In this document: in pieces, positions 12,659-39,773 of the stretch
Layout: every line of letters starts with the position of its first letter
How positions within the stretch are numbered: position 1 is the stretch's first letter
From: Escherichia phage HY03
Sequence record: NC_031047.1
DNA: 64,000 nt
Strand: one strand, 5' to 3'
Notes under the pieces: model-generated
The model's input: only the letters and a program-made list of their open reading frames with translations
Told to the model about the DNA's origin: nothing
The model's database searches: none
Position numbers and translations under genes: made by a program

Positions 12659-12675
12659 TACTTGAAATAATAAAT

Positions 12676-12704
12676 ACCCTTATCTATTTAAGGTAAGGGT
12701 TTTA
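12676..12704 (+). terminator. possible terminator hairpin
   Basis: ACCCTTA / TAAGGGT stem with 11-nt loop then TTTT. Confidence 0.45.
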
Positions 12705-12706
12705 TT

Positions 12707-13180
12707 ATGTTATTGACTGGCAAATTATACAAAGAAGAAAAACAAAAATTTTATAATGCACAAAACGGTAAATGCTTAATTTGCCAACGAGAACTAAATC
12801 CTGATGTTCAAGCTAATCACCTCGACCATGACCATGAATTAAATGGACCAAAAGCAGGAAAGGTGCGTGGATTGCTTTGTAATCTCTGCAATGCCGCAGA
12901 AGGTCAAATGAAGCACAAATTTAATCGTTCTGGCTTAAAGGGACAAGGTGTTGATTATCTTGAATGGTTAGAAAATTTACTTACTTATTTAAAATCCGAT
13001 TACACCCAAAATAATATTCACCCTAACTTCGTTGGAGATAAATCAAAGGAATTTTCTCGTTTAGGAAAAGAGGAAATGATGGCTGAGATGCTTCAAAGAG
13101 GATTTGAATATAATGAATCTGACACCAAAACACAATTAATAGCTTCATTTAAGAAGCAGCTTAGAAAGAGTTTAAAATGA
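12707..13180 (+). CDS. 49: endonuclease VII (Holliday junction resolvase)
   Basis: 157 aa; zinc-binding CLICQ...CNLCN; matches recalled T4 gp49. Confidence 0.9.
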   Translation: MLLTGKLYKEEKQKFYNAQNGKCLICQRELNPDVQANHLDHDHELNGPKAGKVRGLLCNLCNAAEGQMKHKFNRSGLKGQGVDYLEWLENLLTYLKSDYTQNNIHPNFVGDKSKEFSRLGKEEMMAEMLQRGFEYNESDTKTQLIASFKKQLRKSLK

Positions 13181-13925: not shown

Positions 13926-13933
13926 TATAAATA
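13926..13933 (+). promoter_or_regulatory. T4 late promoter box TATAAATA
   Basis: exact TATAAATA 29 nt upstream of the intron ORF ATG. Confidence 0.6.
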
Positions 13934-13962
13934 AGATTATCTTATGAATACGAGGTGAAACA

Positions 13963-14733
13963 ATGAAATGGATAAAAAGACGTTGTACTAAAATAAAAGA
14001 TAAAGACGCATTTACATACTTAGTTAAGTTTTCTAATGGCGACATTTATATCGGTTATAAAAAATTTAGAACAATTAAAAACAAGCCCACAAACTGGAAA
14101 ACTTACACAACGTCATCTAAGTATATAAATGAACGCTTAAAAACTGATACACCTACTAAATGGATAATTTTAAAAACATTTGATAGTTATAAAGATGCAT
14201 TAAAACATGAAGAAGAGGTCATACGTAAATATTTTTATAGCAAAAAATGTTTAAATAAATCCATAGGCGGTAAAAAGTTTTATAAGCATCCGGATACTGA
14301 AGAACATATTCAAAAATTAAGAGATGCTCATAAGGGTAAAGTGTTATCCGAATCTCATAAAAACAATATAAAATCTTCTGTGGCTGAATATTATGCTAAA
14401 AACAGAAGATCTAAGGAACATGTGCAAAATAATATCAATAGTCGAAAAAGTAAAAAACAAGTATCGATAAAGCTTAAAAATAAAACTTTTAGAAGTTTTA
14501 AAAAAGCAGCGGAATATTTAAATTGCACTGAAAGTGAAGTCGAAACTCATCCTCTTGTTTTGAGTATTAAGACTACTATTCATAAAGTTCCTGAATATGT
14601 GGTTGTTGACGGTATTAAGTATACGTCTTATATAGAAGCAGCTAAAGCGCTAAATTTTCATCCTAGCACTATAAAAGAACGTTGCATATCTATGGACTAT
14701 CCAAATTTTGTTGTTTCATATAAACGGGCATGA
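13963..14733 (+). CDS. I-TevII: intron-encoded GIY-YIG homing endonuclease
   Basis: 256 aa; GDIYIGYKK motif; inside the nrdD intron. Confidence 0.8.
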   Translation: MKWIKRRCTKIKDKDAFTYLVKFSNGDIYIGYKKFRTIKNKPTNWKTYTTSSKYINERLKTDTPTKWIILKTFDSYKDALKHEEEVIRKYFYSKKCLNKSIGGKKFYKHPDTEEHIQKLRDAHKGKVLSESHKNNIKSSVAEYYAKNRRSKEHVQNNINSRKSKKQVSIKLKNKTFRSFKKAAEYLNCTESEVETHPLVLSIKTTIHKVPEYVVVDGIKYTSYIEAAKALNFHPSTIKERCISMDYPNFVVSYKRA

Positions 14734-33224: not shown

Positions 33225-33965
33225 ATGATTAGTGACTCTATGACAGTTGAAGAAATCCGTCTTCATTTGGGGCTTGCATTAAAGGAAAAAGATTTCGTAG
33301 TTGATAAAACTGGCGTTAAAACTATTGAAATTATTGGCGCATCATTTGTAGCAGATGAACCGTTTATTTTTGGCGCTCTTAATGATGAATACATTCAGCG
33401 TGAACTTGAATGGTATAAGTCTCAAAGTCTGTTTGTTAAAGATATTCCAGGTGAAACACCGAAGATTTGGCAGCAGGTAGCATCTTCTAAAGGTGAAATT
33501 AACTCGAATTATGGTTGGGCTATCTGGTCAGAAGATAACTATGCTCAATATGATATGTGTTTAGCTGAACTTGGTCAAAATCCTGATTCTCGACGTGGTA
33601 TCATGATTTATACTCGTCCATCTATGCAGTTTGACTACAATAAAGATGGCATGTCAGATTTCATGTGTACGAATACAGTACAGTACCTGATTCGTGATAA
33701 GAAAGTCAATGCGGTTGTTAGCATGAGAAGCAATGATTGCTGGGCAGGCTATCGTAATGATTATGCTTGGCAAAAATACGTACTAGATAAATTAGTATCT
33801 GATTTGAATGCAGGCGACCCATCGCGGCAATATAAAGCAGGTTCTATTATATGGAACGTTGGAAGTCTTCATGTGTACGAAAATCAGTTTTATTTAGTTG
33901 ACCATTGGTGGAACACCGGTGAGACTCATATTGCTAAAAAGGATTATACTGGAAAATGGAAGTAA
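33225..33965 (+). CDS. 42: dCMP hydroxymethylase
   Basis: 246 aa; thymidylate-synthase-like fold; matches recalled T4 gp42. Confidence 0.9.
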   Translation: MISDSMTVEEIRLHLGLALKEKDFVVDKTGVKTIEIIGASFVADEPFIFGALNDEYIQRELEWYKSQSLFVKDIPGETPKIWQQVASSKGEINSNYGWAIWSEDNYAQYDMCLAELGQNPDSRRGIMIYTRPSMQFDYNKDGMSDFMCTNTVQYLIRDKKVNAVVSMRSNDCWAGYRNDYAWQKYVLDKLVSDLNAGDPSRQYKAGSIIWNVGSLHVYENQFYLVDHWWNTGETHIAKKDYTGKWK

Positions 33966-34597
33966 ATGTGCCGCATGTTTATAAGTATAAACATCCTAAA
34001 ACTAAAAAGTGGTATATAGGAAGTCATGATGGTCACAACCCGAATTATGATGGTTCGGGTGTAGTTTGGCAACATGCTAAAAAGAAATATGGAATAAAAT
34101 CCTTTAATAAAGAAATATTATATGAAGGACCAATGTTTAGACAGGTTGAAGAAATTATTTTAACTTGTTTAGATGCTGCTAATTGTCCGGATTCATATAA
34201 TTTAAAGAATGAAGCATGGGGAGGAAGTTTTCCAGGCAAATTAAATGGAATGTACGGTAAAAAACTATCTCCAGAAGAAAGATATAAGTGCGGAAATGCC
34301 TTTCGTGGAATCAAGCGTCCTGATCATTCTAAAAGAATGAAAGGCGAAGGTAATCCAATGTATGGTAAAAATGAGCAGGCATATGGAATTATAAATCGAG
34401 CCAAGGAAAATTCTGGTAAAACTTATGAAGAAATTTTTGGCGTAGAAAAAGCTAAAATAATTAAAGAAACGATGTCTAAAAATCGTAAAGGAAAACCTCA
34501 TAATTTGATAGAAAAAATATGTCCGCATTGCGGACTAAAAGGACGTGGGCCAAATATGACAAGATACCATTTTGACAAATGTAAGGCACTTAAATGA
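33956..34597 (+). CDS. free-standing GIY-YIG homing endonuclease
   Basis: 213 aa; HVYKYKHPKTKKWYIGSH motif; NUMOD-like repeats; C-terminal CPHCG...C zinc motif; overlaps gene 42 stop. Confidence 0.75.
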   Translation: MEVNVPHVYKYKHPKTKKWYIGSHDGHNPNYDGSGVVWQHAKKKYGIKSFNKEILYEGPMFRQVEEIILTCLDAANCPDSYNLKNEAWGGSFPGKLNGMYGKKLSPEERYKCGNAFRGIKRPDHSKRMKGEGNPMYGKNEQAYGIINRAKENSGKTYEEIFGVEKAKIIKETMSKNRKGKPHNLIEKICPHCGLKGRGPNMTRYHFDKCKALK

Positions 34598-35436
34598 TTC
34601 AATTCGTAATTCCAAGTTATCAGCGTGTAGGGGCAGTTTCTGCCCTTAATATGTTTCCGACTGATTATGAACCCCATATTGTAGTGCGTGAACACGAAGA
34701 AAAAGCTTATTATGATGCTTATGGGTCTAGAGCTAAAATTGTAACTATTCCTGATGATGTTAATGGAATTTCCGGTACTCGTAAAGCAATTACTGATATG
34801 TATGCAGGTCAACGAATCTGGATGATTGATGATGATACTACTATTCGTATGAGTTCAATACGAAAGAGAGACGATAAACGGCGCGTAGATAAAATTAATC
34901 AATTAACTCGTGAACAGTTCTATGAATTAATTCAATACGTTGAGGATGCTATGGATTGCGGGTATTATCACGGTCATGCTCGTCTACCAATTTTTAAAAT
35001 TACTTCATCTTGGGGTAATTATCGTGAAAACTCATATGGATTCACGAATACATGGTATGACCTCGGAAAACTTACGGCAGAACAAATTGGGTATGGAAAA
35101 ATTGATTTATGCGAAGATATGTATGCATTTCTCAATTTAATTAATCAAGGTTATCCGCATTTGGCCTTGTTCAAATATCTAGTTGTATCTGGAAAATCAC
35201 ACGCTCCCGGTGGGTGTAGTTCAATTCGTAGTAATTCTAAACATAATAGAGCGCTTGAGCAAATCAATAGAGAGTTTCCAGAGCAAGCTCGTTGGAAAAC
35301 TTCAAATATTGAAAAACGAAAATCGTTGGGTGAAGAAGACGAGCCATTAAAGGTTCTTCGCATGTGTGTTTCGCGTAAAGAAAAATCAGAAGCATTTCAT
35401 AAGTTTAATGCTATTCATCCAATAGCAGTTGATTAA
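34594..35436 (+). CDS. putative glycosyltransferase (not T4 beta-gt; possibly beta-alpha-gt-like)
   Basis: 280 aa; acidic IWMIDDD motif; occupies the T4 beta-gt slot but does not match recalled T4 beta-gt. Confidence 0.55.
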   Translation: MIQFVIPSYQRVGAVSALNMFPTDYEPHIVVREHEEKAYYDAYGSRAKIVTIPDDVNGISGTRKAITDMYAGQRIWMIDDDTTIRMSSIRKRDDKRRVDKINQLTREQFYELIQYVEDAMDCGYYHGHARLPIFKITSSWGNYRENSYGFTNTWYDLGKLTAEQIGYGKIDLCEDMYAFLNLINQGYPHLALFKYLVVSGKSHAPGGCSSIRSNSKHNRALEQINREFPEQARWKTSNIEKRKSLGEEDEPLKVLRMCVSRKEKSEAFHKFNAIHPIAVD

Positions 35437-35513
35437 TGCCTAAATTTATTGTGTTATAATTACCCTATCTTTAACCAGTGAGGAAAATATAATGATGCCT
35501 ATGGAAAAAATGA

Positions 35514-36443
35514 ATGTCTATTGCAGATTTAAAATCCCGTTTGATTAAAGCTTCCACTTCTAAAATGACTGCAGAGCTTACTAAAAGCAAGTTCTTTAAT
35601 GAAAAGGATGTGGTTCGTACTAAAATTCCAATGCTGAATATTGCAATTAGCGGTGCGTTGGACGGTGGCATGCAGTCTGGTTTAACTATTTTCGCAGGGC
35701 CTTCTAAACATTTTAAATCTAATATGTCACTGACAATGGTAGCAGCTTATTTGAATAAGTATCCTGATGCTATCTGTTTGTTCTATGACTCAGAGTTTGG
35801 TATCACTCCGGCTTATCTTAAGTCTATGGGTGTTGACCCGGAACGAGTAATTCATACGCCAATCCAATCAGTTGAACAGCTGAAAATTGATATGGTGAAT
35901 CAGCTTGAAACTATTGAGCGTGGTGAAAAGGTTATTGTATTCATCGACTCAATTGGTAATATGGCTTCTAAGAAAGAAACGGAAGATGCCTTGAATGAAA
36001 AATCTGTGGCAGATATGACTCGTGCTAAATCACTGAAGTCATTATTCCGTATTGTTACTCCTTATTTTAGTATTAAAAACATTCCATGTGTTGCGGTTAA
36101 CCATACAATTGAAACAATTGAACTGTTTAGTAAAACCGTGATGACAGGTGGTTGTGTTATTGCTGGTACTAAAATCCAGATGTCCGATGGTTCTACTAAA
36201 GCAGTTGAAGATATTCGTCCAGGTGAACGTGTTAAAACCATGGTCGGTGATAATGAAGTAACTTATGTTTGGGACCCAGAAACTCTGGCTGAAGGTACTC
36301 CTGAATGTTTCGAAATTGAATTCGAAGACGGTTATAAAGTAACTACTTCAGATACCCACAAGTTCCTGGTAATGGTTAAAGACATTCCAACTTGGGTTGA
36401 AGCTAAAGATTTAGTAGCTGGAATGGATTGTGTTGTAAGGTAA
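35514..36443 (+). CDS. uvsX: UvsX recombinase N-terminal extein (213 aa) fused to N-terminal intein fragment (96 aa)
   Basis: matches T4 UvsX to ...FSKTVMTGG, then CVIAGTKIQMSDGS (intein block A) and TSDTHKFLV (block B); ends at double stop TAA TAA. Confidence 0.85.
   Translation: MSIADLKSRLIKASTSKMTAELTKSKFFNEKDVVRTKIPMLNIAISGALDGGMQSGLTIFAGPSKHFKSNMSLTMVAAYLNKYPDAICLFYDSEFGITPAYLKSMGVDPERVIHTPIQSVEQLKIDMVNQLETIERGEKVIVFIDSIGNMASKKETEDALNEKSVADMTRAKSLKSLFRIVTPYFSIKNIPCVAVNHTIETIELFSKTVMTGGCVIAGTKIQMSDGSTKAVEDIRPGERVKTMVGDNEVTYVWDPETLAEGTPECFEIEFEDGYKVTTSDTHKFLVMVKDIPTWVEAKDLVAGMDCVVR
36153..36440 (+). other. intein N-terminal fragment (Hint blocks A and B)
   Basis: starts at Cys codon directly after extein TGG; 96 codons. 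Confidence 0.8.
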
Positions 36444-36446
36444 TAA

Positions 36447-36488
36447 ATATGGGTACCGGACTAATGTATATTTTTGAGGTACCCATAT
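36447..36488 (+). promoter_or_regulatory. stem-loop occluding the endonuclease start codon
   Basis: perfect 11-bp inverted repeat ATATGGGTACC / GGTACCCATAT, 20-nt loop; right arm overlaps the GAGG RBS and the AT of the ATG at 36487. Confidence 0.65.
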
Positions 36489-37209
36489 GAATTTTGTCTA
36501 TAAAATTGTGTTCAACGATAGAATTAAAAACGGCACTCCGCCGTATTACTACATAGGAAGCAAGACAAATGCTTCTTATGTAGACGGTAAGATTATTGAC
36601 GCCCGTGGTCGCGAGTACTATGGCTCATCGAGATATCCCGGATATCATGATTTTATCAATAATGTTACTGTTGAAATACTGGAGCAATATGATGATATTA
36701 AACATGCTAAACTGCTAGAGCGCGAAAATTTCTATCAGAAACAAGTAAACGTTAAAACAAATCCAGATTATTTTAATTTGGATTATGCTTGTGGACATAA
36801 TTCATATGCTAATGCTGATTTTGCATCATACAAGCATCATATAACAGGTAAATGTATTCGTCTTGAAAGAAACCATCCGCTTGTTAAATCTGGTGTGTAT
36901 GTTGGCGTCACAAAAGGCGTGAAATCTTCTGATGAACACCGTAAGCACATATCAGAAGGTATTACAGGAGAAAACAATGGGTTCTATGGTAAGAAACACA
37001 CCAAAGAAACAATTAATGAAATATCAGAAAAAGCAAAGAAAAGATTAAAGCATTCTCATCCTAGACAAAAAGGCGTTATCATAAACGGTATTGAATACCG
37101 GGGCGTCAGACCTGCTGCAAGAGCGCTGGGAATTAATCCTAACACAATTATCAACAAAATTAAAGCTAACACAAAAGGATGGGCTTATGCAGTAGATGCA
37201 CGTGGTTAA
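36487..37209 (+). CDS. free-standing GIY-YIG homing endonuclease between the split intein halves
   Basis: 240 aa; VYKIVFNDRIKNGTPPYYYIGSK motif; ENNGFYGKKHTKETINEISEKAKK and C-terminal segment resemble I-TevI linker/DNA-binding region. Confidence 0.8.
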   Translation: MNFVYKIVFNDRIKNGTPPYYYIGSKTNASYVDGKIIDARGREYYGSSRYPGYHDFINNVTVEILEQYDDIKHAKLLERENFYQKQVNVKTNPDYFNLDYACGHNSYANADFASYKHHITGKCIRLERNHPLVKSGVYVGVTKGVKSSDEHRKHISEGITGENNGFYGKKHTKETINEISEKAKKRLKHSHPRQKGVIINGIEYRGVRPAARALGINPNTIINKIKANTKGWAYAVDARG

Positions 37210-37351
37210 GGCATTCCAATGCGAGTTCTTTACGGGTTCGCACTACATTCGAAGATATGGTAAAAGAATTTGGAATGAACGCGACAATCAAGATTATGCT
37301 TTCATGAAATATGTATATTGAAACTAGCTACTACGAAACACAAGGTAAAGT

Positions 37352-37456
37352 ATGAAAATTAAATCTGTTAAATCTGTTGGTAAAAAAGAAGTCTATGATT
37401 TGTCTGTTGCTGACGTAGAGCATTATGTTTTAGAAAATGGTATCGTTACACACAAT
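37352..37456 (+). other. intein C-terminal fragment (Hint blocks F and G)
   Basis: ends ...THN followed by Thr as +1 extein residue. Confidence 0.8.
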
Positions 37457-37999
37457 ACAGGCGTAATGTATTCGGCTGATACTGTATTCATTATCGGTAA
37501 GCGTCAGATTAAAGATGGTTCTGATCTTCAGGGGTATCAATTTGTTCTAAATGTAGAAAAATCTCGTACCGTTAAAGAAAAAAGTAAATTCTTTATTGAT
37601 GTTAAATTTGACGGTGGTATCGATCCTTATTCTGGATTGTTAGATATGGCTCTAGAATTAGGATTTGTAGTAAAACCAAAAAATGGCTGGTATGCTCGTG
37701 AATTTCTTGATGAAGAAACCGGCGAGATGATTCGCGAAGAAAAATCTTGGCGTGCAAAAGATACCAACTGCACTACATTCTGGGGTCCTTTATTTAAGCA
37801 TCAACCATTCCGAGATGCTATTAAACGTGCTTATCAGTTAGGTGCTATTGATAGTAATGAAATTGTTGAAGCTGAAGTTGATGAATTGATTAACTCAAAG
37901 GTTGAAAAATTTAAATCTCCAGAAAGTAAAAGTAAATCAGCAGCTGATTTAGAAACTGACCTCGAGCAGTTAAGTGATATGGAAGAATTTAATGAATAA
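37352..37999 (+). CDS. uvsX: C-terminal intein fragment (35 aa) fused to UvsX C-terminal extein (180 aa)
   Basis: own ATG and AAGGT RBS; VYDLSVADVEHYVLENGIVTHN (blocks F/G) then TGVMYSADTVFIIGKRQ... matching T4 UvsX C-terminus. Confidence 0.85.
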   Translation: MKIKSVKSVGKKEVYDLSVADVEHYVLENGIVTHNTGVMYSADTVFIIGKRQIKDGSDLQGYQFVLNVEKSRTVKEKSKFFIDVKFDGGIDPYSGLLDMALELGFVVKPKNGWYAREFLDEETGEMIREEKSWRAKDTNCTTFWGPLFKHQPFRDAIKRAYQLGAIDSNEIVEAEVDELINSKVEKFKSPESKSKSAADLETDLEQLSDMEEFNE

Positions 38000-38336
38000 A
38001 GATGATTTAGACTTAGATCTAGAAATTATCGATGAATCCCCCTCTTCGGAGGGGGAAGAAGAAAGAAAAGAACGTCTTTTTAATGAGTCTCTTAAGATAA
38101 TTAAATCTGCCATGGAAAATGTTATCCAGGAGATTGTCATTAAACTAGAAGATGGTTCTACACACATTGTGTATGTGACAAAATTAGATTGGGTTGATGG
38201 AAAGGTTGTAATGGACTTTGCTGTTCTTGACCAAGAAAGAAAAGCTGAGTTAGCTCCTCATGTAGAAAAATGTATTACAATGCAACTACAAGATGCATTC
38301 AATAAAAGGTCAAAGAAAAAGTTTAAATTCTTTTAA
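37992..38336 (+). CDS. 40: head vertex assembly chaperone gp40
   Basis: 114 aa directly downstream of uvsX; size and position as in T4. Confidence 0.7.
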   Translation: MNKDDLDLDLEIIDESPSSEGEEERKERLFNESLKIIKSAMENVIQEIVIKLEDGSTHIVYVTKLDWVDGKVVMDFAVLDQERKAELAPHVEKCITMQLQDAFNKRSKKKFKFF

Positions 38337-38345
38337 GGAGTAAGT

Positions 38346-39773
38346 GTGGTAGAAATTATTCTTTCCCATCTCATATTTGATCAAGCTTATTTTTCAAAAG
38401 TTTGGCCATATATGGATTCAGAATATTTTGAAAGTGGTCCAGCTAAAAATACATTCAAATTAATTAAATCTCATGTTAATGAGTACCATAGCGTTCCATC
38501 TATTAATGCGTTAAATGTTGCATTAGAAAATAGTTCATTTACTGAAACAGAATATTCTGGTGTAAAAACACTTATTTCAAAACTGGCTGATTCTCCGGAA
38601 GACCACAGCTGGTTAGTAAAAGAAACAGAAAAATATGTTCAGCAAAGGGCGATGTTTAATGCTACGTCTAAAATAATCGAAATTCAAACTAATGCTGAGC
38701 TTCCTCCGGAAAAACGAAATAAGAAAATGCCGGATGTTGGTGCTATTCCTGACATCATGCGCCAAGCATTATCAATTTCATTTGATAGCTACGTTGGTCA
38801 TGATTGGATGGATGACTACGAAGCACGTTGGCTATCTTATATGAATAAAGCTCGTAAGGTTCCATTTAAACTCAGAATTCTAAACAAAATTACTAAAGGC
38901 GGAGCTGAGACTGGAACACTGAACGTTTTAATGGCTGGCGTTAACGTTGGTAAGTCATTAGGATTGTGTTCATTGGCAGCAGATTATTTGCAGCTCGGAC
39001 ATAATGTTCTTTACATTTCCATGGAAATGGCAGAAGAAGTCTGTGCTAAACGTATTGACGCTAATATGCTTGATGTTTCTCTTGATGACATTGATGATGG
39101 GCATATTTCTTACGCTGAATATAAAGGAAAAATGGAAAAATGGCGTGAGAAATCTACTCTCGGTCGTTTAATCGTTAAACAGTATCCTACTGGTGGAGCA
39201 GACGCTAATACATTTCGATCACTTTTAAACGAATTGAAGCTCAAGAAGAATTTTGTTCCAACAATCATTATTGTCGACTATCTAGGTATTTGTAAATCTT
39301 GCCGCATTAGAGTTTATTCAGAAAATAGTTACACAACTGTTAAAGCTATTGCAGAGGAATTGCGTGCTCTGGCTGTTGAAACCGAAACTGTTCTTTGGAC
39401 TGCAGCACAGGTTGGTAAACAAGCTTGGGATTCTTCTGATGTTAACATGAGCGATATTGCAGAATCTGCCGGTCTTCCAGCAACAGCTGATTTTATGCTT
39501 GCGGTCATTGAAACCGAGGAGCTAGCAGCTGCTGAACAACAACTCATTAAGCAAATCAAATCACGATACGGTGATAAGAATAAATGGAATAAGTTTTTGA
39601 TGGGTGTTCAAAAAGGAAATCAGAAATGGGTAGAAATTGAACAAGATTCTACTCCAACTGAAGTGAACGAAGTAGCAGGTTCACAGCAAATTCAGGCTGA
39701 ACAGAATCGCTATCAAAGAAACGAATCCGCTCGAGCTCAGTTAGATGCTTTGGCAAATGAATTAAAATTTTAG
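38346..39773 (+). CDS. 41: replicative DNA helicase gp41 (DnaB-like)
   Basis: 475 aa; Walker A GVNVGKS; GTG start; matches T4 gp41. Confidence 0.95.
   Translation: MVEIILSHLIFDQAYFSKVWPYMDSEYFESGPAKNTFKLIKSHVNEYHSVPSINALNVALENSSFTETEYSGVKTLISKLADSPEDHSWLVKETEKYVQQRAMFNATSKIIEIQTNAELPPEKRNKKMPDVGAIPDIMRQALSISFDSYVGHDWMDDYEARWLSYMNKARKVPFKLRILNKITKGGAETGTLNVLMAGVNVGKSLGLCSLAADYLQLGHNVLYISMEMAEEVCAKRIDANMLDVSLDDIDDGHISYAEYKGKMEKWREKSTLGRLIVKQYPTGGADANTFRSLLNELKLKKNFVPTIIIVDYLGICKSCRIRVYSENSYTTVKAIAEELRALAVETETVLWTAAQVGKQAWDSSDVNMSDIAESAGLPATADFMLAVIETEELAAAEQQLIKQIKSRYGDKNKWNKFLMGVQKGNQKWVEIEQDSTPTEVNEVAGSQQIQAEQNRYQRNESARAQLDALANELKF

Follow-up and report, generated by a model that had tools for sequence, protein, structure and literature searches.

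A start-codon hairpin and an overlapping late-promoter-like box point to probable late-limited translation of a homing endonuclease gene within split uvsX of T4-like phages

The window, i.e. the whole 64,000-nucleotide stretch of Escherichia phage HY03 (NC_031047.1) analysed here, belongs to a T4-like phage in which an intein divides uvsX, with an I-TevI-like homing endonuclease gene (HEG) lying between the two intein halves. This HEG starts inside an 11-bp hairpin, and a late-promoter-like box overlaps the 5' arm of that hairpin. We consider it quite likely that the hairpin and the late promoter together act as a T4-type translational switch that keeps the HEG off early and turns it on late; the endonuclease is probably made only late in infection, because the hairpin hides the HEG's ribosome-binding site. 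Such a switch, like that of the T4 intron endonucleases, had been proposed in the original prediction and is supported at the level of sequence by covariation in the stem, by replacement of the stem, by the variant of the late box, and by a drop in the energy needed to open the start site.

The features of the locus are collected in Table 1. When the two exteins are joined in silico they give the T4 UvsX sequence, and the reconstituted intein matches the DnaE split inteins and gp41-1; its N-terminal half contains the SDTH motif of block B and then ends at a stop codon. Putative trans-splicing would restore an active host protein, which is indirectly supported by the viability of the carriers as isolated phages. 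No relevant account of a UvsX intein or of a split uvsX came up in literature searches.

Table 1. Features of the split uvsX locus and of the HEG leader (positions in the window).
Feature	Position	Strand	Description
Candidate MotA-type middle promoter 5' of uvsX	35437..35460	+	TGCCTAA, 11-nt spacer, TATAAT; pattern match
UvsX N-extein	35514..36152	+	213 aa, ending ...VMTGG; Pfam RecA 7.6e-09; junction mapped
Intein N-half	36153..36443	+	96 aa, Cys1 (CVIAGTK...); TAA stop 36441-36443; matches to Hint, Vint, Intein_splicing and TIGR01445 intein_Nterm
Late-promoter-like box AATAAATA	36442..36449	+	positions -13 to -6; 3-nt overlap with 5' arm; overlaps TAA stop
5' arm ATATGGGTACC	36447..36457	+	perfect inverted repeat, folding, compensatory changes
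Homing-site mimic GGTACCGGACTAATGTAT	36452..36469	+	15/18 identical to uvsX across the intein insertion point; candidate operator
Predicted late +1	36455	+	6 nt past box; placed from box position by the -13 to -6 rule
Loop GGACTAATGTATATTTTTGA	36458..36477	+	20 nt
Shine-Dalgarno (SD) GAGG	36476..36479	+	7 nt 5' of ATG; last two G's in stem, GA at loop edge
3' arm GGTACCCATAT	36478..36488	+	spans SD-GG, spacer and AU of AUG
HEG	36487..37209	+	240 aa, free-standing, I-TevI-like, of NUMOD3 and putative GIY-YIG type; NUMOD3 2.9e-09
Candidate MotA-type middle promoter just 5' of intein-C ORF	37297..37319	+	TGCTTTC...TATATT; candidate by pattern match
Intein C-half	37352..37456	+	35 aa, ending ...IVTHN; TIGR01443 intein_Cterm 4.4e-07; Pfam Intein_splicing
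UvsX C-extein	37457..37999	+	starts at Thr+1, TGVMYSADT...; Pfam T4_UVSX_C 1.9e-39; junction mapped

No start codon precedes the ATG at 36487 in its ORF, and this ATG opens the N-terminus M-x-x-[VI]-Y-K common to all HEG homologues; judged by its sequence, it is the correct HEG start. Pfam GIY-YIG gives no match to the HEG at E <= 0.01, the score against TIGR01453 ('group I intron endonuclease') is 55.0 bits vs a cutoff of 56.05, and the NUMOD1 match is weak. PHROG homing endonuclease families match at 1e-25, and the motifs VYK...YYIGS...ERENF...YFN, which we take to be the equivalents of the I-TevI catalytic residues, are invariant across the family alignment. The HEG family profile also matches the I-TevI DNA-binding domain (1I3J/1T2T) in its C-terminal domain (residues 35-113, E = 2e-4). 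The association with an intein that was originally predicted for this endonuclease holds, and its wording can be sharpened to a free-standing HEG, probably of GIY-YIG type, between split-intein halves.

Searching with the MotA-type consensus established for T4 middle promoters yields one candidate 5' of uvsX, which may be the source of long transcripts carrying the whole hairpin, and another just 5' of the intein-C ORF (Table 1). The second site is kept in 6 of 7 close carriers (window counted) and is missing in RPN226. A further candidate within the HEG (36570-36593) was dropped, as relatives do not conserve the site.

The perfect 11-bp inverted repeat with a 20-nt loop that the original prediction placed at 36447-36488 is borne out by the sequence and by folding, i.e. 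the stem is found in both the MFE and the centroid structures when 36430-36510 is folded as RNA. Its right arm was said to cover both the GAGG and the first two nucleotides of the ATG. The latter is correct; only the two 3' G's of the GAGG are covered. The fold has an energy of -18.3 kcal/mol (about -16.9 for the hairpin by itself) and a z of -2.0, which is modest in this 81-nt context, with 6 of 200 dinucleotide shuffles folding equally well. Six distinct perfect hairpins of at least 11 bp with loops of 3-40 nt exist in the window, the one at the HEG start being the most GC-rich, and overlapping 11-mer hairpin matches number 9 vs ~1.4 expected under a first-order Markov model. An Rfam search with the hairpin matched no family at E <= 1.

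Comparison with relatives draws on phage genomes, IMG/VR, and metagenomes and covers 21 distinct lineages that have a split uvsX, with HEG identities of roughly 35-100%. A hairpin reaches the SD or the AUG in every one of these 21 HEG leaders, and the stem sequences are unrelated between lineages. Because the same kind of hairpin is found in all of them, its position on the start site is not due to chance. Among close relatives, compensatory changes affect 4 of the 11 stem pairs, and five distinct sequences have 96% of cells paired; this level is matched by 1 of 500 shuffles, and slid registers fall to 19-54%. For example, pair 7 changes from G-C to A-U in RPN226 and the CF-SP2 group, while two pairs are altered in Pm5461 and another two in SEA1. 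In 17 of 21 lineages the sense strand gives a better fold than the antisense one (Wilcoxon p = 0.003; 39 G-U pairs), which is what an RNA structure, and not a DNA palindrome, should show. Counts among the 21 are not independent events, since the lineages are relatives of one another.

A late-promoter box one mismatch from the consensus had also been predicted upstream of the hairpin. The single mismatch is correct and the location needs a small correction, as the box overlaps the 5' arm by 3 nt along with the stop codon of the preceding ORF, and RNA from the predicted +1 retains only ACC (3 nt) of that arm. T4-like phages have A or T at position -13 of late promoters (Nolan et al. 2006, PMC1524935). 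By its sequence, AATAAATA is an accepted late-promoter variant, and we infer that it acts as a late promoter at the HEG. The 8-mer has only 2 copies in the 64 kb, vs ~15 expected, and the second copy fronts gene 49, which the same 8-mer precedes in T4 as well. This gene 49 box is reportedly a late-promoter box (reviews PMC2988022, PMC3014915); the T4 RefSeq record has no regulatory features annotated, hence no entry for a gene 49 late promoter. More generally, NATAAATA words are depleted 5-6 fold in the window (8 observed vs 41-50 expected under first- and third-order models), and all five copies of [T/A]ATAAATA lie on the + strand, 25-40 nt 5' of start codons. The box at the HEG coincides with the tandem stop sequence TAATAA, so part of it could exist for another reason.

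All 21 leaders have a late box, which lies in the loop, inside the 5' arm, or immediately 5' of that arm. A perfect TATAAATA is found in ten, each placed so that late initiation would take away the 5' arm; among the others are AATAAATA in L026 and L053, GATAAATA in CF-SP2, and, in a Vibrio phage, a box of the CTAAATA type. The boxes of Pm5461 (ATTAAATA) and SEA1 (AATAAATG) are degraded and the stem persists in both; in L041, which has no more than a remnant of the HEG, the box has mutated and the hairpin is still present.

The cost of opening the SD-AUG region of the HEG falls from 12.9-13.6 kcal/mol in long RNA to 2.2-2.3 kcal/mol in RNA starting at 36455, and the value of 12.9 ranks 6th among 41 gene starts in the window. 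Three genes of the same window, all with the same geometry, served as positive controls, and their costs fall from 16.3 to 3.0 kcal/mol for gene 49, which has the AATAAATA box, from 12.6 to 2.8 kcal/mol for an I-TevII-like HEG, and from 8.6 to 4.3 kcal/mol for soc. Across the 21 lineages the median cost is 12.7 kcal/mol in long RNA vs 3.4 kcal/mol from the predicted late +1, with boxes assigned by hand in L049, L053, Pm5461, and EniLVp02. The drop amounts to at least 4 kcal/mol in 16 lineages, and little or no early-late difference is predicted in the remaining 5 (Pm5461, SEA1, EniLVp02, L054, and L060). Hairpin switches at the ribosome-binding site have been validated in the literature for gene 49, soc, e, and I-TevI (PMC3014915, PMC2988022).

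Under the proposed switch, early and middle transcription from upstream promoters would produce a long uvsX mRNA that runs through the HEG to the second uvsX half. Ribosome loading at the HEG would be poor on this mRNA because the 11-bp stem would bury the 3' part of the SD, the spacer, and the start codon; both uvsX halves would be made and the endonuclease would not. Late in infection, the gp55-dependent promoter AATAAATA would fire and RNA would begin at about 36455 with 3 nt of the 5' arm left, i.e. nearly without that arm because the box overlaps it. The stem could not form in such RNA, the ribosome-binding site would be free, and the endonuclease would be translated. We infer promoter activity, the actual 5' ends of the transcripts, and the timing of translation from these features. 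The stop codon of the preceding ORF lies 3 nt 5' of the stem; ribosomes terminating there should, given the known size of the ribosome footprint, transiently melt about half of it, which could leak some early translation.

The DNA at 36452-36469, in the 5' arm and the first 12 nt of the loop, may have a dual use, i.e. it may also be an autorepressor operator to which the endonuclease would bind by way of its I-TevI-like DNA-binding domain, shutting its own late promoter. We regard this as a tentative reading, with the odds somewhat against it, and it would add a second layer of control atop the hairpin switch rather than replace it. The I-TevI operator agrees with the homing site at 15/20 positions and overlaps the late promoter of I-TevI (PMC2988022). 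The mimic in the window covers the predicted late +1, and its 15/18 identity is found with T4, with four close relatives that lack the intein, and with the joined exteins of the window itself, a score equalled by 2 of 200 dinucleotide shuffles (p ~0.01). In the window's type, the best extein match of each of the six leaders falls across the junction in one and the same register, and the L020 leader matches its own extein at 14/18 (extended, 20/28). Counted by hand, matches to the own vs the other's extein are 15 vs 8 of 18 for the window and 14 vs 11 of 18 for L020. An inverted copy of the extein stretch from +7 to +25 is common to PM2, EniLVp02, and L052, so that the mimic is present in the window's family and in these four lineages. 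Five close leaders keep the loop motif CTAATG unchanged, and pairing does not explain this constancy because the motif is unpaired and the stems have changed. The I-TevI domain matched by the C-terminal part of the HEG has been solved on both homing site and operator (1I3J/1T2T).

Against the operator, the mimic is undetectable in L048, L049, L053, L026, L027, and TG1. A universal mimic was rejected, as most of eight further lineages failed, and the operator idea is thus kept as a secondary hypothesis. Combining the per-lineage shuffle results by hand gives an overall significance that is borderline, and lineages with a mimic signal may owe it to common descent. Instead of being a selected binding site, the mimic could be a fossil of the insertion event or reflect gene conversion with the neighbouring C-extein as donor. 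Its reading as a conserved reading-frame relic was rejected: read in the extein frame, the window's mimic encodes GTGLMYIFEVPI and then a stop that overlaps the HEG ATG, a frame relation that is lost in CF-SP2, where the loop is 4 nt shorter. Compared with intein-less relatives, the exteins of carriers show no immunising substitutions within 28 nt of the junction. That the complete I-TevI circuit of hairpin and operator has been rebuilt in a split-intein context, with a decoy co-evolving with its own extein, is likewise conceivable and somewhat doubtful.

The hairpin might instead be a constitutive attenuator, keeping endonuclease translation on the uvsX polycistronic mRNA low at all times, with AATAAATA being no working promoter but just a run of tandem stop codons and A/T-rich sequence. 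The overlap of the box with TAA-TAA, its one mismatch to the consensus, and the retention of hairpins in Pm5461, SEA1, and L041 where boxes are degraded or mutated fit this reading; the identical 8-mer in front of gene 49 in both the window and T4 argues against it, as do the strong avoidance of ATAAATA-containing words elsewhere in the window, the perfect TATAAATA at the equivalent place in ten leaders, and the normality of A or T at -13 in T4-like phages. We therefore consider it unlikely.

Translational coupling is another reading, in which ribosomes ending at 36441-36443 melt the lower stem and some of them initiate on the HEG, which would tie its synthesis to translation of uvsX and not to late transcription. 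Going by the known footprint size, about 6 positions at the start of the stem would be covered by a ribosome at this stop, and the 3-nt spacing between stop and stem is found in both the window's type and the CF-SP2 group. However, the spacing varies elsewhere, amounting to ~9 nt in Pm5461 and, in TG1, PM2, L019, and others, to 10-30 nt; a stop ~9 nt before the stem is present in gene 49 too, for which early repression is known from experiment; and coupling leaves the late box without explanation, which together make this reading quite improbable.

A chance repeat, an intrinsic terminator, or an RNA-processing or stability element unrelated to HEG translation has very little likelihood: the genome is AT-rich and rich in hairpins, as the six perfect stems above indicate, and a short UUUU follows the stem by 3 nt, but covariation, conservation, and the constant SD/AUG placement in 21 lineages speak against chance, and a terminator is rejected because it would cut off the essential second uvsX half and, further, because of the 20-nt loop, the lack of an adjoining U-run of 5 or more, and a + strand scan of 35300-38400 that detected no terminator-like site, thus none between uvsX and the HEG.

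Control of the type favoured here, by a hairpin and a late promoter, is already known for I-TevI, mobE, segB, and 'fractured genes', with e, soc, gene 49, I-TevII, and I-TevIII also in its class, and the HEG hairpin is a new, well-conserved example of it. The control of I-TevI is said to have been worked out in a series of earlier studies. In the td intron of T4, I-TevI has a hairpin at the ribosome-binding site, an internal late promoter, and an autorepressor operator (PMC2988022, PMC3014915). The endonuclease of the window is probably of the same GIY-YIG family and would likewise be embedded in an early/middle transcription unit; in both, SD and AUG are buried on the long RNA and a late promoter gives RNA without the 5' arm (both predicted in our case), and a homing-site-like sequence lies by the late promoter (15/18 in the window vs 15/20 in I-TevI). 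By contrast, the host element is here a split intein in uvsX and there a group I intron in td; as such, the rationale given for I-TevI, i.e. shielding intron folding and splicing from ribosomes, is inapplicable. The box also differs, being the candidate AATAAATA here and TATAAATA there, and the operator-like mimic is missing from several related split-uvsX lineages.

The endonuclease gene mobE reportedly splits nrdA of Aeromonas phage Aeh1. As proposed for the window, a HEG divides an essential gene into two ORFs on a single transcript, and its ribosome-binding site is sequestered by a hairpin that contains or adjoins a late promoter; late-limited translation has reportedly been demonstrated by experiment for mobE. 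The differences are that mobE encodes an HNH enzyme and that nrdA is split without an intein, whereas the UvsX halves would be rejoined by putative protein trans-splicing. In T4 gene 49 (endonuclease VII), SD and AUG are buried by a stem that follows the same AATAAATA box, and the gene 49 leader of the window folds at -18.2 vs -18.3 kcal/mol for the HEG leader. Gene 49 is, however, an ordinary phage gene that is not mobile, and the box lies within its stem, whereas only the last 3 nt of the box are in the HEG stem.

Fractured genes (e.g. gp41-1, NrdJ-1, and IMPDH-1) have the same order of host-N plus intein-N, HEG, and intein-C plus host-C in the sections of Dassa et al. 2009 (PMC2677866) that treat these loci. 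According to those sections, their HEGs are free-standing and GIY-YIG or Vsr-like, and a hairpin precedes the start in 15 of 16 HEG 5' UTRs, with TATAAATA in ten. The host types listed there do not include uvsX, and the loci described there come from marine metagenomes, whereas the uvsX element is found in cultured coliphages and in other enterobacterial, Pseudomonas, and Vibrio T4-like phages. The overlap between the HEG and the intein-C ORF differs too: 15 loci given by Dassa et al. overlap by 6-69 bp, whereas a 142-nt spacer (37210-37351) separates the two ORFs in the window. Distant uvsX lineages do overlap, and an overlap of the HEG 3' end with the intein-C ORF is seen in CF-SP2, UFV01, Lion_ER11, SEA1, EniLVp02, and TG1. 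Such overlap is a frequent rather than a defining feature of fractured genes.

The mechanism is textbook T4 biology and no concept is changed by it. What the locus offers is a clean, conserved, and experimentally tractable example in culturable coliphages (ELT1, pSe_SNUABM_01, SYGD1, and others), in which the host gene, uvsX, is needed by the endonuclease's own homing reaction. A rule put forward on metagenome data, that gene-fracturing HEGs bring along a late-only expression cassette of their own, is extended by it to a further host gene and to phages that have been isolated. The UvsX split intein (96 + 35 aa, Cys1/Thr+1) may interest protein engineers, and the possible homing-site decoy would provide a second test case for endonuclease autorepression. 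If the operator is real, two-layer control would operate in a widespread, so far undescribed family of UvsX split inteins.

The hairpin at the start of the homing endonuclease gene (HEG) in uvsX and the late-promoter box beside it probably act as a T4-type switch, for which we infer promoter activity, transcript ends, and timing from the sequence. On abundant early and middle uvsX mRNA, the stem would keep the endonuclease untranslated, and a short late transcript would allow its translation. Such T4-like control, with a start that is buried early and exposed late, was the original prediction, and it is supported by structure, conservation, box placement, and the predicted change in accessibility. 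The perfect 11-bp inverted repeat read from the sequence is recovered by RNA folding of 36430-36510, where the minimum-energy structure and the centroid both contain the stem (-18.3 kcal/mol, z = -2.0; about -16.9 kcal/mol for the isolated hairpin), and 6 of 200 dinucleotide shuffles of this stretch match its fold stability. The 3' arm was expected to cover the GAGG ribosome-binding site (RBS) and the first two nt of the ATG (36487); it covers the latter and the spacer, but only the last two G's of GAGG (36476-36479). Likewise, the box AATAAATA, described as upstream of the stem, shares 3 nt with the 5' arm and is thus not wholly upstream; it also shares positions with the TAA stop of the ORF before it. 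The window holds six distinct perfect hairpins of at least 11 bp with loops of 3-40 nt, this one being the most GC-rich, and overlapping 11-mer inverted-repeat matches number 9 vs. about 1.4 expected.

The window comes from a Tequatrovirus (T4-like) genome and reads along the direction of early transcription; the gene around the hairpin is uvsX, encoding a RecA-like recombinase, in pieces (see table). Joined, the exteins give an uninterrupted T4 UvsX sequence, and the reconstituted intein matches DnaE split inteins and the gp41-1 split intein. The HEG carries NUMOD3 and weak NUMOD1 motifs, matches PHROG homing-endonuclease families, and has a C-terminal domain matching the I-TevI DNA-binding domain (PDB 1I3J/1T2T); against TIGR01453, an I-TevI-type model, it scores 55.0 bits (cutoff 56.05). 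The whole insertion is present in only 7 of 624 matching phage records, with uvsX uninterrupted in the others, and the architecture (split intein plus GIY-YIG-type HEG) is found in at least 21 lineages across Straboviridae.

Features of the split uvsX locus, late-promoter boxes, and other genes of the window
Feature	Coordinates	Strand	Details
UvsX N-extein	35514-36152		
Intein N-half	36153-36443		96 aa, Cys1
[T/A]ATAAATA copy, HEG in uvsX	36442-36449	+	AATAAATA
HEG-start hairpin	36447-36488		ATATGGGTACC / GGTACCCATAT, 20 nt between arms
Homing-site mimic	36452-36469		GGTACCGGACTAATGTAT
HEG	36487-37209		240 aa
Second inverted repeat, HEG coding region	36549-36583		CTACATAGGAAGCA / TGCTTCTTATGTAG; 14 nt, 93% complementary, 7-nt loop
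MotA/-10-like site inside HEG	36570-36593		
HEG stop to intein-C start	37210-37351		142-nt spacer
MotA/-10-like site upstream of intein-C/UvsX-C ORF	37297-37319		
Intein C-half	37352-37456		35 aa, ends THN
UvsX C-extein	37457-37999		starts at Thr
[T/A]ATAAATA copy, small ORF		+	before ORF at 2382
[T/A]ATAAATA copy, gene 49 (endonuclease VII)	12669	+	AATAAATA
Gene 49 leader	12669-12709		stem over SD/AUG after box; -18.2 kcal/mol, z = -3.1
[T/A]ATAAATA copy, I-TevII-like GIY-YIG endonuclease	13926	+	perfect TATAAATA; gene start 13963
I-TevII-like GIY-YIG/NUMOD1 endonuclease	13926-14733		256 aa, RBS hairpin
[T/A]ATAAATA copy, soc		+	
246-aa ORF	33225-33965		
Second seg-like endonuclease	33956-34597		213 aa

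The second inverted repeat spans the YIGS motif codons of the HEG. A 34-nt segment of the spacer (about 37212-37245) is missing from SP21535, SYGD1, and BYEP01, the spacer is only 38 nt in RPN226, and the HEG and intein-C ORFs of more distant lineages overlap. A MotA-box/-10-like pattern (TGCTTY, N11-14, TANNNT) is enriched in the window (30 found vs. 11 expected); the site just upstream of the intein-C/UvsX-C ORF could give the second uvsX half its own middle promoter, and conservation in relatives was not found for the site inside the HEG. At L029/L030 (1-2100), uvsX is intact and intein-less and is followed by a strong terminator hairpin and then a free-standing HEG relative that lacks a late box; at L041 (1420-1730) the HEG is a 42-aa remnant between intein halves, with the box mutated (TATGAATA) and the hairpin kept; these loci look like snapshots of gain and decay.

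The late-promoter word is rare in the window. TATAAATA has 3 copies vs. about 11 expected, AATAAATA has 2 vs. about 15, and TGTAAATA and TATATATA are absent from both strands. Taken over the whole window and both strands, the four NATAAATA words occur 8 times vs. 41-50 expected under first- and third-order Markov models, a 5-6 fold depletion that fits counterselection of stray late promoters, and their counts suggest that position -13 matters little. In T4-like phages the box lies at -13 to -6, with -13 commonly A or T (Nolan et al. 2006, PMC1524935). Each of the five [T/A]ATAAATA copies precedes a start codon by 25-40 nt on the + strand, and T4 gene 49 is also preceded by AATAAATA. Among homologous leaders, ten lineages have a perfect TATAAATA box, with AATAAATA in L026 and L053, GATAAATA in CF-SP2, CATAAATA in L060, and TATAAATG in L019; the box of a Vibrio phage leader fits the Aeh1-type CTAAATA (Nolan et al. 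2006, PMC1524935). The box always lies just 5' of the 5' arm, inside the arm, or in the following loop. A constitutive attenuator, with the box not a working promoter, is unlikely: gene 49 provides a precedent, the word is avoided in the rest of the window, and relatives carry perfect boxes.

Placing the box at -13 to -6 puts the predicted late start at 36455, and RNA from there would keep only ACC of the 5' arm. The computed cost of opening the HEG Shine-Dalgarno (SD)-AUG region is 12.9-13.6 kcal/mol in long RNA vs. 2.2-2.3 in RNA from 36455. In-window controls change from 16.3 to 3.0 kcal/mol (gene 49), 12.6 to 2.8 (I-TevII-like gene), and 8.6 to 4.3 (soc). In occlusion, the HEG start ranks 6th among 41 plus-strand gene starts in the window (median 5.2 kcal/mol). 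Across the 21 lineages, the median cost goes from 12.7 to 3.4 kcal/mol; 16 of them drop by 4 kcal/mol or more, and Pm5461, SEA1, EniLVp02, L054, and L060 do not. Long transcripts with the whole stem are expected because a middle-promoter-like site precedes uvsX, a terminator scan found no + strand terminator between that site and the HEG, and the second uvsX half lies downstream of the HEG. A coupling gate, in which ribosomes terminating 3 nt upstream open the hairpin, is improbable given that stop-to-stem spacing is not conserved and that gene 49 has a similar upstream stop.

Related arrangements occur elsewhere in the window. The gene 49 leader serves as an internal positive control, and the I-TevII-like endonuclease is, by prediction, a second endonuclease with the same switch. 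At the gene starts 6998, 52229, 47266, and 42479, strong hairpins sequester the SD (opening cost 12-17 kcal/mol), and their 5' arms coincide with or immediately precede an early-promoter-like GTTTAC...TAnnAT pair; occlusion would affect read-through transcripts only and spare those from the proximal promoter, putatively the same switch logic on early promoters. Proteins from these four starts have no Pfam matches. The second seg-like endonuclease (PHROG homing endonuclease, weak NUMOD3) overlaps by 10 nt the end of the 246-aa ORF, which we take from T4 gene order to be gene 42, dCMP hydroxymethylase. No box or hairpin was noted at this endonuclease gene, so its expression design appears unlike that of the uvsX HEG.

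Close carriers have nearly identical leaders, except RPN226 (about 8% diverged), where a G in the 5' arm is replaced by A and its C partner in the 3' arm by T. Distant HEG relatives (roughly 35-69% protein identity) share the split-uvsX architecture and come from phages of Proteus, Salmonella, Enterobacter, Klebsiella, Pseudomonas, Vibrio, and Yersinia, and from IMG/VR and metagenome contigs. Folding places a hairpin reaching the SD or start codon in the leaders of all 21 lineages. In the alignable group (the window, RPN226, Pm5461, CF-SP2, and SEA1), 4 of 11 pairs show compensatory change with pairing kept, 96% of cells are paired, and covariation as high as observed arises in 1 of 500 column shuffles; when the 3' partner is shifted by 1-3 columns, pairing falls to 19-54%. 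Stems of other lineages are unrelated in sequence (e.g. GCTCCGAT, TAAGTCCAG, CATTAGTTTAT, GCTGTGTACATACA, and CCTAAGTAGGTT) and the same in position. The sense fold is more stable than the antisense in 17 of 21 lineages (Wilcoxon P = 0.003), which, being related, are not independent events, and 39 of 424 pairs across these stems are G-U; both argue for structure in RNA over a palindrome in DNA. A chance repeat, terminator, or processing site is highly improbable given the covariation in close leaders, the terminator scan, and the lack of an Rfam match. In the Salmonella phage SEA1 (L012, 1446-1503), two more compensatory pairs (GCGGATAC/GTATCCGC) preserve the stem, an insertion of about 17 nt separates it from the ATG, no SD is visible, and the database CDS starts at an ATG within the hairpin; regulation may be decaying there, or the start may lie elsewhere.

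The 5' arm and half of the loop also resemble the uvsX homing site, a feature outside the original prediction: 15 of 18 positions agree with the uvsX sequence that spans the precise intein insertion point. This mimic matches both the T4 junction between GGT and ACTGGACCGATGTAT and that between GGT and ACAGGCGTAATGTAT in the window's own exteins and four intein-less relatives; 2 of 200 dinucleotide shuffles reach this identity. All six window-type leaders have their best match in the same register across the junction. By hand count, the window leader matches its own extein at 15/18 and that of L020 at 8/18, while the L020 leader matches its own, different extein at 14/18 (20/28 extended) and the window's at 11/18. 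Extein positions +7 to +25 recur as a shared inverted copy in PM2, EniLVp02, and L052, and five leaders with changed stems all keep the loop motif CTAATG. In I-TevI, an operator identical to the homing site at 15/20 positions overlaps the late promoter and mediates autorepression (PMC2988022). This parallel, i.e. a homing-site-like sequence at a late promoter (15/18 here), and the I-TevI-like DNA-binding domain of the HEG make it possible, if doubtful, that the mimic is an operator, a second control layer added to the switch and not replacing it. However, the mimic is undetectable in the L048, L049, L053, L026, L027, and TG1 leaders, the per-lineage shuffle results combined by hand are only borderline significant, and the mimic may be a fossil of the insertion event or have arisen from the C-extein by gene conversion.

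Genes e, soc, 49, and I-TevI are the standard cases of a start buried in a helix early and freed late (PMC3014915; PMC2988022), and the principle is also established for I-TevII, I-TevIII, segB, and mobE of Aeh1 (PMC2988022; PMC3014915). The sections of Dassa et al. 2009 (PMC2677866) on which we draw describe "fractured genes", with a free-standing GIY-YIG or Vsr-like HEG between split-intein halves, and report hairpins in 15 of 16 HEG 5' UTRs, ten with TATAAATA. Judged by sequence features, the uvsX case has the defining features of both a T4-type switch and a fractured gene. It differs from the latter in its host gene, uvsX not being among the host types listed in those sections, in its occurrence in cultured enterobacterial and other T4-like phages, and in the window's 142-nt spacer in place of an HEG/intein-C overlap. 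The literature searched contained no description of a uvsX split intein, an absence that is not proof of novelty. With the control principle already known, what is new lies mostly in the surrounding split-intein element and the possible operator decoy.
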